Made by a program: the position numbers. DNA of 8,489 bases from a virus (taxonomy: Duplodnaviria; Heunggongvirae; Uroviricota; Caudoviricetes), in IMG/VR virus record IMGVR_UViG_2706794493_000018. One strand, 5' to 3'. Numbering within the stretch: position 1 is the stretch's first letter; the number at the start of each line of letters is the position of its first letter. This document shows positions 3,001-8,489 of this stretch, one piece after another.

Positions 3001-6000
3001 CAACGGCAGATAGATAAAAGCCCCACCCGACTATAAATCGAAGTGAGGCCCCTATATGCTCGTCACATATAGATTGCCTCTTACGGACCGAAAGGTCAAG
3101 GAGAAGCAGGCTATGAAGCAAAGGGAGAAATCCCTCGCCACCTCTGATGTGTCAGGCATCCTCAACGCACCCGCACTTAACCCGCTTCGGCGGGTTTTTG
3201 TTTTTATTTTCAACGCGTTTGAAGTTCCGGACGGCGCCGGAATAGAATCAAAAATACTTAAGTAGCGCGCAGGGAGAAGAGGGATGGACCCCGAACAGGG
3301 GAGTGCTATTTATCTGGAAGGATTCTGTTGATGAGAATCGAAGAATTACGTGAAATTTTTAGTGAAGATGGCCTCTATACTGTGCGCGTTGAGAAGGGCG
3401 CTATTGTCAGCCACTGCCGTATTAAATGTTTACAGTCTCAACAAAGGAAGAGTGGAGCTGCGTTAATTCATTTTGTGGATGGGCTTGTGACGGATGGTTT
3501 TATTTTGCGTGCAAATGAATTTGTCACATCGTTGCCGTCTCTGAAAGAAGCTGGGATTAAGGCTGGTTTTTCTGCTTTTGAAGATTAGTGAATTCATCTA
3601 CAATTCAGCGCAGGGCTGAACCCCTGTTGAGTAACACTGTGCCACCGGAGAAAGCCGATGGCGCAAAATTCCAGACTACACAATTCTGATAATTCAGCCG
3701 TCTTTGCCAGCAGGCACGGGCGGCGTTCTCATGCATTCAAATCTGACTGGTTCCGGCACGCCCCATGCACTGAAGAACAGGCCGAATGGCTGATTCAGAA
3801 CTACCGCAGACGTGGGTATGAGTTTAGGAAAGCCCTCAGCCTCGATTATCGTCACTGGATAATCTACGTCAGGCTGCCGTACTCCGAGCGCCCACCGCGT
3901 CCGTCCCGCACATTCCAGCAACGCATCTGGAGGTAACGTGCGGGTATTACTTCGACCTGTTCCGGTACCGGAACTTGGGGTGGTGGTCCTTAAACCAGGC
4001 CGTGAATCCATGCAGGTATTCCATAACCCTCGAGTGCTTGTGGAGCCGGAGCCGAAAAGCATGCGCGGTCTGCCGTCCGGCATCGTCCCTGCCGTTCGCC
4101 AGCCGCTGGCGGAGGATAAATCATTACTGCCGTTTTTCAGCAATGAGCGTGTGATTCGTGCTGTTGGTGGCGCTGGTGCACTGTCTGACTGGCTGTTGCG
4201 TCATGTCAAATCCTGCCAGTGGCCTCATGGTGACTATCATCACAGTGAAACCGTTATTCACCGTTATGGTACCGGCGCAATGGTGTTGTGCTGGCACTGC
4301 GACAACCAGCTGCGTGACCAGACATCCGAATCACTCGAGCAACTTGCTCATCAAAACCTGTCAGCATGGATGATTGACGTCATCGGTCACGCAATAAGCG
4401 GTACGCAGGAGCGTGAATTATCTCTGGCTGAATTATCCTGGTGGGCGGTCCGCAATCAGGTGGCGGACGCGCTACCGGAAGCGGTATTACGTCGTTCGCT
4501 GGGGTTGCGTGCGGAAAAAATCCGCTCAATGTACCGTGAAAGCGACATCGTACCGGGAGAGCAGACCGCCACCATCATACTGAAGCAGCGCACAAAAAAT
4601 CTTGCGCCGCTGCCTCACGCCCACCAGCAAAACCCACCACAGGAAAAGACGGTGGTCAGCATTGCCGTTGATCCGGAGTCTCCGGAATCCTTCATGAAAC
4701 GACCTAAACGTCGCCGCTGGGTAAATGAGAAATACACACGCTGGGTAAAGACACAGCCGTGTGCGTGTTGTGGTAAGCCAGCGGACGATCCTCATCATCT
4801 GATTGGTCATGGTCAGGGCGGAATGGGAACAAAATCCCACGATATTTTCACGCTACCGCTGTGTCGGGAGCATCACAACGAGCTTCATGCGGATCCGCTG
4901 GCGTTCGAAGAAAAGCATGGTTCCCAGGTTGATTTAATTTTTCGTTTTCTTGATCACGCCTTTGCAACCGGCGTGCTCGGGTAAAAGAGGTTACTGATGC
5001 GTATAGAGTTTGTTTTGCCTTACCCGCCGACGGTGAACACCTACTGGCGACGTCGTGGCAGCACATATTTTGTATCAAAAGCCGGTGAGCGTTATCGCCG
5101 GGCTGTGGCGCTTATTGTTCGCCAGCAGCGGCTGAAATTAAGCCTGTCCGGACGGCTGGCAATAAAAATTATTGCAGAACCACCGGATAAGCGCCGCCGT
5201 GACCTGGACAACATTCTGAAAGCACCGCTGGATGCGCTGACGCATGCGGAAGTGCTCATTGATGACGAGCAGTTTGATGAAATCAATATTGTGCGCGGTC
5301 AGCCTGTGCCAGGTGGACGGCTGGGCGTGAAGATTTACGAAATCAGAGGTGGTAACGATGGCGCGTGATATCCAGATGGTTCTTGAGCGATGGGGGGCAT
5401 GGGCAGCAAATAATCATGAAGATGTAACATGGCCCTCGATAGCTGCTGGTTTTAAAGGATTAATCCCGACTAAAGTGAAATCACGTCCTAAGTGTTCTGA
5501 TGATGACGCCATGATAATTTGTGGTTGTATGGCACGATTAAACAAGAATAATCAGTATTTGCACGATTTGTTGGTGGATTATTACGTAGGTGGAATGACA
5601 TTTATGGCTCTTGCACGTAAGCATAGATGTTCTGATGGGCTTATTGGTAAAAGGCTTTATAAAGCGGAAGGTATTATTGAAGGAATGCTTATGGCTCTGA
5701 ATGTCCGGTTAGATATGGATATGCGGTAGGGATATATAGTGATGAGGGTTATGTTTTCTGTGTTTATAATTAACATGTTTATTTTTTGATGGTCATGTAT
5801 TGTGGAAGGTAGATAAAATGTTGCCTGGTGAATTGAAAATATTGATAATCAATCTTCATCATTAAATAAAAGGAGTGCTTATGTGGATTGTGTTAGTACT
5901 GTCACTGTCAACTCTCAGTTGGCATAAGGTAGTGGCTTTTTCATTGTTGACGGTGTCTGTTGTCCTGGCTGTGCTTAATGATATTATTGATTGGTCGGTG

Positions 6001-8489
6001 TTATTTTTTGTTGCTACAATCGTTTTTTTTATTATTTTGAAGTTCAACTGGAAATATAACGCCTGGGCTAAATCTATATATGAAGTTGGCATAGTTTTAT
6101 CAGCCATAGCATTATTTTTCCATCTATGGCCAGGGTTTCACAATCCTGTAGTGCTAAATTCTGTTACTGTTGGCCCTCAAAGTACTCCCTATACAATGTA
6201 TTTTAATTTTGATAAAGCGCTGGTGCCATTTTTGTTAGTCCTGTGTACATCTTCTTTGTTTAAAAAAGAAGTAAAATCAGAAGTGTCTTTGTGGAAGTGG
6301 GGGGCTCTGTCGCTCTCTGTTCCTCTTATCCTGTTTTTGGCTGTTTTTTTTGGTGGATTAAAGCCAGAGATTCATTTTCCTGAGTGGTTGCCAGAGTTTA
6401 TATTGGCTAATTTGTTTTTTGTGTCTCTGGCAGAGGAATCATTATTTAGAGGGTATATTCAATCACGGCTATCAGAAGTAACGTCTCCATTGGTTGCATT
6501 AATTGTGGCGGCTTTGTTGTTTGGTTTTTATCACTATTCAGGTGGTGCTTTACTTGTATTATTTGCCACGTTATCTGGTGTTGTGTATGGATTGTCATGG
6601 ATGTGGAGTGGGCGTTTGTGGGTTGCCACCCTTTTCCATTTTGGTTTGAATCTGTGTCACTTGTTATTCTTTACCTATCCATTTTTAAAACATAATTGAT
6701 TTTTTCTATGGTTTTAAATTTATAAGACTGAAAAATAGCAGGACGTGACATTTGCATGAAAAATATGCACGGCAAAGCATTTACGTACGTAAAAAATCAG
6801 GTATGCTGTTAAGAGTGGTTATTTCGCCGCATAGCTTGACCCCGCCTCTGAGCGGGTTTTTTGTGCCCGCAAAGTAGCGCAGTGCGTTAAATGTGCTGGT
6901 AGTTATTAATACAGGTCTTTCAGCTTGCTGGCTTTTTCGACAAGAGTTATTGGTGTGTCACGTTAACCGGAAAGGGTAAAAAGACATGCTGAAACAGCAG
7001 GATATGACAGAAACCGCCAGAGTTGTGTTTGATGAATTAAGCGTCACCGAACCGGCGACGGTCGGGGAGATTGCGCAGAATACGTACCTTTCACGCGAGC
7101 GCTGCCAGTTAATACTGACCCAGCTGGTTATGCGGGTCTGGCAGACTATCAGTTCGGTTGTTACAGACGCCTTCAGTCCTGAAGGCTTTTTTATTTGTGG
7201 TAAATGGGCGGCTGGTGGGTGTTAGCGGCACCTGTCAGTCCTTTGCTTATGTGTTGATGATAATTTACCTTTTGGGGCTATAATTGAACTAACCAATTGC
7301 TAATGAAAGTAAAATTATAATGGTTGTTGTCTGTTCAGTTATCATGGTTTGCTCCCCAATTAATATTTTTCTTGAAAAGGATACGTTGTCACTTAAGCCC
7401 GGCTCAGTCGTTCTGGCCACCAAATGCATCAGGGCGCTTTTCCTTATGCATTATGGCAAAGTTAAAATTTTCGATATAAACCATTCCATAGTAAGTCAAT
7501 ATCTGGAAATTCAGCATAAGCTGACAAGAACTCATCTGACTGACGTTCCGCTTTATCTGTCACTGGAACCCAACAACCCTGCGTTGGCTGAGGCTTTAAT
7601 TACCAGCCAGAGATTTTCCGGAGATACCACGGATATGTTTCTTATGATGGCATGCCTGTCGCTGTTTGAATCAGATGAACGGATATTATTATTTTTAAGT
7701 GGATGTTTATCCAGTATAAGTGCCAAAGTCAGGGCGATAATTCAGACAGATATATCAGCAAGCTGGACGCTTGGTGCGATTGCGTTACGCCTGCATATGA
7801 GTGAGAGTTTGTTAAAGATAAAACTGAAAAATGAAGGGCACATGTTCAGTCGCTTGTTGCTGGAAGAGCGGATGCGTGTTGCTGTCAATATGTTATGTTC
7901 CCGGCATGGATATGGACAGGCTGTAGCAGAAAAATGCGGTTATTCAAGCTGGTCCTACTTTATTTCTGTATTTCACCGCTATTATGGCTTCCCGCCAGAC
8001 AGATATGTATCCAGGCAAGGGCTTGATTATTGATTTTCATCTGATTATTATTTTTTGACCCAGCCCTTTAGCTCAGTGGTGAGAGCGAGCGACTCATAAT
8101 CGCCAGGTCGCTGGTTCAAATCCAGCAAGGGCCACCATCACATACCGCCATTAGCTCATCAGGAAAGAGCGCCAGCTTTCGAAGCTGGTTGCGCGGAGTT
8201 CGGGTCCCCGAAGGCGGTCCATTATCTGTATCCTGCGTTGTTAGCTCAGCCGGACAGAGCAATTGCCTTCTAAGCAATCGGTCACTGGTTCGAATCCAGT
8301 ACAACGCGCCACACTTATTTTCCCTGGCTCGCTTTTGCGGGCCTTTTTTTTAAATGTCTCACAATTCAGGCGGTTGACTGTTGTCTGGTTTGCGGGGAGT
8401 TTGTTAAAAGAAACTGGCATGGTGAATCCCCCTGTGCGGAGGGGCAATCAGCGAGTAGGTATATGGGATAATCGCGGATTCAGGTGCTG

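Follow-up and report, generated by a model that had tools for sequence, protein, structure and literature searches.

Rce1, a type II CAAX prenyl endopeptidase, is the founding member of the CPBP family of intramembrane proteins (PF02517). Among its bacterial relatives, MroQ of Staphylococcus aureus is a CPBP peptidase that acts in AgrD/AIP (autoinducing peptide) maturation (PMC9388083), and myxosortase is a CPBP peptidase for MYXO-CTERM sorting (PMC11980579). The members SpdC/LyrA and LnsB have lost the catalytic motifs and are probably non-catalytic, and SpdC, in which key catalytic residues are missing, has a non-proteolytic partner role (PMC7387801). A described point of comparison for the genetic setting is the prophage Sp5 of Escherichia coli O157:H7 Sakai, in which the transcription start of the late promoter PR' and the 3' end of the terminator tR' were mapped 258 nt apart by differential RNA sequencing (dRNA-seq) and Term-seq (Sy et al., PMC7547250). 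Here we analyze a CPBP gene at positions 5881–6699 of an 8,489-nt stretch of viral DNA, IMG/VR record IMGVR_UViG_2706794493_000018 (the whole stretch is called the window in the following). This gene is probably a cargo gene of Q933-type lambdoid prophages, inserted exactly between the antiterminator gene Q and its cognate PR', and as such lies outside the late operon. The features on which this reading rests are as follows.

5358..5729, + strand: antiterminator Q gene (Q933/Q21 superfamily, PF06530; Pfam E = 8.7e-52), 123-aa form from MARDIQ
5730..5880, + strand: AT-rich Q–CPBP intergenic region of 151 nt with a candidate sigma-70 promoter and a Shine-Dalgarno sequence, and no intrinsic terminator
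5821..5849, + strand: candidate sigma-70 promoter TTGCCT-N17-GATAAT, with 31 nt between the end of its −10 and the CPBP start codon ATG
5881..6699, + strand: CPBP-family (Rce1-like, PF02517) intramembrane endopeptidase gene, 272 aa, identical to ECs1085 and WP_000265265.1
6780..6807, + strand: PR' homologue with −35 TTTACG (6780–6785) and −10 TATGCT (6802–6807), predicted transcription start site (TSS) near 6814
6841..6862, + strand: intrinsic-terminator-like hairpin CCCGCCTCTGAGCGGG followed by T6 (terminator scan), conserved with the Sp5 hairpin

The sequence-only reading of the window had taken the CPBP gene to be the first Q-dependent gene. By position it is indeed the first gene after Q (PF06530), which ends at 5729, but the PR' homologue at 6780–6807 is 3' of the CPBP stop at 6699, and the claim of Q dependence is therefore not supported: located upstream of PR', the gene is outside the Q-antiterminated late transcript in this phage. 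Genes of the late operon are downstream of PR' and tR', which the CPBP gene in the window is not. The window Q is 78% identical to Q933 of Sakai Sp5, with similarity stopping at the Q C-terminus, and distantly matches the Q21 structures 6p18 and 6jnx; the open reading frame (ORF) listing also offers an alternative GTG start at 5349. In Sp5, a Shiga toxin (Stx) 2a phage, the promoter TTTACG-N16-TATCAT is the sole match and overlaps the stop codon of Q933; from a start 7 nt past its −10, the distance to the T-run end of the hairpin GCCAGCCTCCCCCAGTGGCTGGCTTTTTT is exactly 258 nt. From this exact spacing and the promoter and terminator features, rather than from a direct coordinate match, we infer that the mapped Sp5 TSS belongs to this promoter.

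The corresponding elements are conserved in the window. The sequence 3' of the window −10 is GTTAAGAGTGGTTA, corresponding to GATAAGAGTGGTTA in Sp5, and the Sp5 counterpart of the window hairpin is GAACCCGCCGATGCGCGGGTTT followed by a T-run. Altogether, the PR' block of the window (6780–6862) is 72% identical to that of Sp5 and 82% identical to that of ev207, with an invariant core, and its hairpin at 6841–6862 is the first terminator 3' of both the CPBP gene and PR'. In Sp5 the hairpin conserved at this position of the window is a strong terminator-like structure with T7 (969–996), located at approximately +25 to +50 of the PR' transcript; the published tR' end is at +258. The hairpin may be an early terminator, a pause site, or a Q-loading element. 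In every Q933-type locus that bears the CPBP gene, the PR' block is found 75–100 nt past the stop of this gene, and the order Q–CPBP–PR' recurs in Sp4, in the 84% allele (Stx1d prophages), and in the 62% and 59% alleles. A second copy of the PR' pattern (TTTACG-N15-18-TAnnnT) was not found between Q and the CPBP gene.

Expression of the CPBP gene as the first Q-antiterminated late gene, solely via Q at a PR' located between Q and CPBP, is consequently very improbable in our assessment. The gene is the first ORF after Q, promoter-like hexamers are present in the Q–CPBP intergenic region, and a 55% allele that accompanies a lambda-type Q seems to follow a PR'/tR'-like promoter and terminator, all of which would fit such an arrangement. 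Nevertheless, the homologue of the mapped Sp5 PR' sits past the CPBP gene in every Q933-type locus examined, the Q–CPBP interval contains neither a terminator nor a second PR' promoter pattern, and in phages without the CPBP gene the PR' block adjoins Q (Sp5) or the holin gene (ev207).

Insertion as cargo is indicated by comparison of related phages and by base composition. The CPBP gene is absent at the same junction in Sp5, ev207, and 434B, and in the latter two a porin occupies the CPBP slot: ev207 (2888–4745), 434B, and PA-2 (J02580.1) carry an antisense OmpC/NmpC/Lc porin gene between Q and the PR' block, which is followed by the holin gene. The G+C content of the CPBP region is 0.36–0.38, as compared with approximately 0.52–0.55 in the upstream phage genes, and the low-G+C tract includes the 3' half of Q. 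Two marks of a moron (an autonomous cargo unit in a phage genome), presence or absence among homologous phages and deviant base composition, are thus found for the CPBP gene. Its placement after Q had been considered unusual from the sequence alone, a view that does not hold, as the interval from Q to the lysis genes is a recurrent cargo slot, occupied by antisense porin genes (ev207, 434B, PA-2) or, in Stx phages, by stx. Four complete E. coli genomes matched the Stx1d-phage query with a query coverage of 80% or more (L006–L008; H128–H131), and each of them has the 84% allele between Q and PR'-stx1dAB. In those four genomes, the late promoter driving stx1d is approximately 1 kb away from Q because the CPBP allele intervenes.

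The family assignment is well supported. A prophage-borne CPBP ORF at 5881–6699, as called from the sequence alone, is confirmed by the ORF itself, the Pfam match, and the prophage context. The ORF starts with an ATG that is preceded, 5 nt upstream, by the Shine-Dalgarno sequence AAGGAG (5870–5875); an alternative in-frame GTG start at 5875 in the ORF listing overlaps this sequence and is unlikely. In the Pfam profile search, the protein matched PF02517 (Rce1-like) over positions 3–92 of the 93 positions of the hidden Markov model with E = 1.4e-19 and 70.6 bits, and the profile check proposed with the sequence-only reading was thereby clearly passed, the gathering cutoff being 22.4 bits; this core match spans residues 169–258. 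The identification of the family is not new. RefSeq names WP_000265265.1 'CPBP family intramembrane glutamic endopeptidase', the counterpart in O157:H7 Sakai (ECs1085, prophage Sp4) is annotated as 'phage CAAX amino terminal protease family protein', and the gene has a PHROGs entry (phrog_13291, function unknown). At the level of protein sorting families, the NCBIfam Mrt models scored only 19–33 bits against cutoffs of 75–325 (best MrtP, 33.2 versus 250), and the ABC_perm_CPBP model scored 46.2 bits, below its cutoff of 435.

All three motifs of the PF02517 pattern EExxxR + FxxxH + HxxxN/D are present in the CPBP protein, as EESLFR (residues 185–190), FGFYH (214–218), and HFGLN (253–257). These are the three intact motifs that had been claimed, at the claimed locations, and they are conserved across a family alignment of 38 sequences, in which no variation occurs at E185, E186, R190, F214, H218, or H253 and conservation of N257 is 90% or more. 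The AlphaFold2 model (predicted local distance difference test score 95.5) has a polytopic helical membrane fold that matched solved CPBP structures in the fold search, with SpdC/LyrA as the best structural match, and the structural comparison suggested earlier thus came out positive at the level of the Rce1/SpdC fold. The CPBP protein is hence a polytopic inner-membrane member of the CPBP family with the complete conserved active-site set E185/E186/R190, H218, and H253/N257. Its predicted catalytic competence is well supported, and an active enzyme is favored because the motifs are invariant across approximately 50% divergence, whereas the non-proteolytic SpdC and LnsB have lost them. A non-catalytic CPBP scaffold that would bind a sensor kinase, a hydrolase, or another membrane protein of the host and regulate it, in the manner of SpdC/LyrA, LnsB, or Abx1 is very unlikely by comparison with these data: the top structural match SpdC/LyrA does act as a partner of SagB, and CPBP folds have been co-opted for non-proteolytic roles (PMC7387801), but the invariance of E185, E186, R190, H218, and H253 over approximately 50% divergence is hard to explain without catalysis.

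A gene 100% identical at the DNA level occurs in 572 of the 5,426 complete E. coli genomes, and any CPBP allele was detected in 574 of them at blastn sensitivity; the CPBP-bearing genomes listed by name belong nearly all to Shiga toxin-producing or enterohaemorrhagic E. coli (STEC/EHEC) serotypes. At the same sensitivity, no CPBP copy other than the prophage alleles was found in these 5,426 genomes, and E. coli appears, by these searches, to be otherwise without a native CPBP orthologue. The gene was likewise not found in 50,697 phage records, hundreds of Stx phages included, where searches at the DNA level and by tblastn returned only two weak Listeria fragments; because of this absence from sequenced phage records, the gene is regarded as dispensable for lytic growth. 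Orthologues of approximately 50% identity are standalone chromosomal genes across the Enterobacterales. A modF-CPBP-galE or modF-CPBP-gpmA arrangement is common to Yersinia (L004), Providencia (L003), and Hafnia (L018), the Hafnia orthologue beginning 6 nt past the modF stop, and other orthologue neighborhoods were seen in Dickeya, Citrobacter, and others. We looked for a conserved partner gene beside the chromosomal orthologues and found none in the neighborhoods inspected. The modF-CPBP synteny covers three Enterobacterales families, and E. coli is without the gene at this location.

The Q933-linked alleles form one clade in a neighbor-joining tree (midpoint-rooted, no support values). Among the prophage alleles, the ratio of nonsynonymous to synonymous substitution rates (dN/dS) is 0.12–0.30 at dS values from 0.3 to >2 (near saturation), the length is a constant 272 aa, and every allele is AT-rich, with a G+C content at third codon positions of 0.31–0.36. 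As judged from these comparisons, the prophage CPBP gene is a long-maintained accessory gene under purifying selection and not debris. A functionless passenger in a decaying prophage is hardly credible on this evidence. Sp4-type prophages are certainly defective, with insertion sequences and frameshifted terminase, portal, and J genes, and the O157 clone is so young that its copies of the CPBP gene are still nearly identical and their intactness says little; against this stand the dN/dS of 0.12–0.30 with near-saturated synonymous sites, the preservation of the 272 aa and of the motifs, and the retention of the gene in at least four divergent prophage lineages, Stx1d phages included.

How the CPBP gene might be transcribed was deduced from the signals around it. 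The terminator scan found no intrinsic terminator in 5730–5880; a candidate terminator in this spacer was rejected, as it is only a weak AT-rich fold (z = −2.0) and not a G+C-rich hairpin with a U-tract. Since no terminator separates the two genes, read-through from Q into the CPBP gene is expected, and on induction the delayed-early (PR-nin-Q) transcript would most likely extend to CPBP as its final gene. In the lysogen, the weak promoter of the gene itself at 5821–5849 may drive transcription as well. This candidate promoter is at an equal offset in the window, L006, and L022, with the variants TTGCCA and TTGTCA in the Stx1d-phage and Escherichia albertii alleles. A moron would also have a promoter and a terminator of its own; here there is this candidate promoter, and no terminator between the CPBP stop and PR', the first being the hairpin after PR', and CPBP transcripts would end at this hairpin (6841–6862).

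A different order was observed for the 55% allele, which in L020 (4741–6268) and L021 follows a lambda-type Q (PF03589, 278 aa) and whose position relative to PR' is opposite to that in the window. The Q-to-CPBP interval of this lambda-type-Q phage contains the promoter-like sequence TTGATT-N18-TATGCT and a strong terminator (4831–4856 plus T-run), and the CPBP allele may, judging from these signals, be a true first late gene there.

Several observations weigh against the interpretation of the window gene as an enzyme-encoding cargo gene with early or autonomous transcription. The 55% allele with its unrelated lambda-type Q appears to be 3' of PR'/tR', which makes late expression of CPBP relatives plausible, and given this late-placed allele a lytic-cycle function of CPBP is conceivable. 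The published Sp5 coordinates are offset by approximately 142 nt from the record version used. The candidate CPBP promoter is only a 9–10/12 consensus match in each of the three alleles in which it was compared, and the identity of the Q–CPBP spacer (78–80%) is not above that of synonymous sites (approximately 74%). Searches of Protein Data Bank (PDB) chains with the CPBP sequence and with the family profile reached no CPBP structure, neither Rce1 nor SpdC, and our literature search found no paper on ECs1085, the CPBP protein, or its subfamily.

A role in the lytic cycle or in phage competition at induction, such as superinfection exclusion, processing of envelope proteins, or tuning of lysis, is quite unlikely in our estimate. 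It would agree with the constant location of CPBP at the early/late boundary beside Q, a location that it keeps in phages whose Q proteins belong to two unrelated families and whose lysis cassettes differ, with the likely co-transcription with Q, and with the long maintenance of the prophage alleles under purifying selection. It is opposed by the absence of the gene from all 50,697 phage records, which implies that it is dispensable for lytic growth, by the lack of a link to any single lysis or structural module, and by the lack of a defence match: neither the CPBP gene nor the rest of the window matched PADLOC-DB v2 at E ≤ 0.01, and no defence-system matches were seen near the orthologues either.

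Our best reading of the function, drawn from sequence comparisons, is that of an accessory membrane peptidase that would benefit the lysogen or the phage at induction. The CPBP enzyme would cleave a peptide or protein that is embedded in the membrane or close to it, and E. coli would gain with it an activity encoded on the chromosome in most other Enterobacterales. The roles suggested from the sequence alone, namely bacteriocin immunity, superinfection exclusion, and envelope modulation, are guesses; toxin-peptide immunity, phage exclusion, and processing of a host envelope protein would be hypothetical variants of this reading. One possible role, compatible with placement of the gene as cargo between Q and PR', is immunity by lysogenic conversion, in which the protein would be expressed in the lysogen from its own promoter and would degrade or block a membrane-targeting peptide toxin (microcin, colicin, or bacteriocin) of competitors. 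Such a function would parallel that of the Abi/CPBP proteins by which Gram-positive bacteria are immune to their own bacteriocins. The intact motifs would suit this role, as would the promoter-like site conserved in three alleles, the AT-rich, cargo-like nature of a gene that is present or absent between related phages, its intactness in Sp4-type copies whose terminase and portal genes are frameshifted, and its occurrence, among the genomes listed by name, nearly always in gut STEC/EHEC serotypes. We nonetheless consider immunity unlikely as the specific function: no bacteriocin or peptide-toxin gene was found in the window or in ten homologue neighborhoods, the chromosomal orthologues resemble housekeeping singletons (modF-CPBP-galE), and the sub-threshold NCBIfam matches point to sorting proteases and not to immunity proteins.

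A more far-reaching proposal, which we put forward only tentatively and consider unlikely as a whole, is that CPBP is an old, selected phage enzyme that supplies an activity absent from E. coli, acts on a substrate relevant to STEC, and is encoded by a gene whose transcription reads into, and possibly interferes with, PR'. If this were true, candidate substrates would be a membrane-active peptide of a competitor, a membrane protein of an incoming phage, or a protein of the host envelope or of host signalling with an effect on colonization, and CPBP transcription could affect PR' as the promoter of stx1d and of the lysis genes. As it stands, CPBP is an uncharacterised accessory gene of an ordinary type. 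New are its corrected regulatory placement between Q and the late promoter, where it is not a Q-dependent late gene; the recognition of a long-lived phage-borne CPBP clade under purifying selection that is always beside Q; the separation of Q from PR'-stx1d by CPBP in Stx1d prophages; and the apparent absence from E. coli of an orthologue that stands alone in other Enterobacterales chromosomes. Identification of a substrate would make CPBP the first member of this Enterobacterales CPBP subfamily to be characterised, with a possible bearing on STEC fitness or on the control of PR'-driven toxin expression.

The remainder of the window contains the following features.

2019–2777, + strand: periplasmic-binding-protein-fold gene (PF13531), low-G+C cargo; RefSeq counterparts are named AcfC-family adhesin Paa
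2966–3115, + strand: sok antitoxin RNA (Rfam, gathering-level, 103.9 bits)
6986..7225, + strand: small ORF (phrog_331); in RefSeq a frameshifted TrmB-family regulator fragment, ECs1086 region
7320..8033, + strand: Psr-family AraC/YdeO-like regulator, ECs1087 homologue (Pfam HTH_18, HTH_AraC)
8062..8311, + strand: tRNA cluster ileZ-argN-argO (ARAGORN, Rfam, RefSeq), with anticodon CAT, tRNA-Arg TCG, and tRNA-Arg TCT
8388–8489, + strand: 5' part of the STnc100 small RNA (Rfam, gathering-level), truncated where the window stops

The window is a recombinant, and no complete E. coli genome has >71% of it in one place. Positions 3637–8489 are 97% identical to Sakai Sp4 and the left part matches other O157 prophages. 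The gene order of Sp4, DUF968-RusA-Q-CPBP-ECs1086-AraC(ECs1087)-ileZ-argN-argO with Q as ECs1084 in Sakai, is that of the window, whereas the left half of the window (paa, DUF1627, and neighbors) derives from another prophage lineage. Within the prophage, the paa gene belongs to the early-right region. The regulator at 7320–8033 is YdeO/GadX-like by NCBIfam, below cutoff; ecs1087 of Sp4 has been named psrA (PMC13502914), in conflict with the use of psrA for z1789 in OI-50 (PMC10877973). Located 3' of PR' and the hairpin, this regulator, unlike CPBP, could be read from the late promoter.

Compared with the founding member of its family, the CPBP protein is 17% identical to Rce1 (MmRce1, 4CAD) and differs from it by a subfamily-specific conserved block, PGFHN...MYxNFDKALVPF, in the N-terminal half outside the Pfam core match; we know of no prenylated CAAX substrates in E. 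coli. Identity to SpdC/LyrA of S. aureus, solved in complex with SagB (6U0O), is 13%, and in contrast to SpdC the CPBP protein retains every catalytic-motif residue. In this respect it resembles MroQ and the myxosortases, which are motif-intact, characterised bacterial CPBP proteins whose cleavage targets are a particular membrane-associated peptide or a C-terminal tag. It belongs to a different subfamily from these; its Mrt scores are far below the cutoffs, and no genes for agr-like or CTERM-tagged substrates were found near the CPBP gene or in the homologue neighborhoods inspected. Abi-type self-immunity proteins are linked to a bacteriocin or peptide-toxin locus, and the CPBP gene does not share this linkage. 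With respect to genomic position, the closest counterparts are the lc/nmpC porins of PA-2 and DLP12-type phages, which occupy the same hot-spot between Q and the same PR' block; the porin cargo is antisense to the phage transcript, whereas CPBP is co-oriented with Q. The stx genes of Stx phages, in contrast, are downstream of PR'/tR' and Q-dependent, while CPBP is upstream of PR'.

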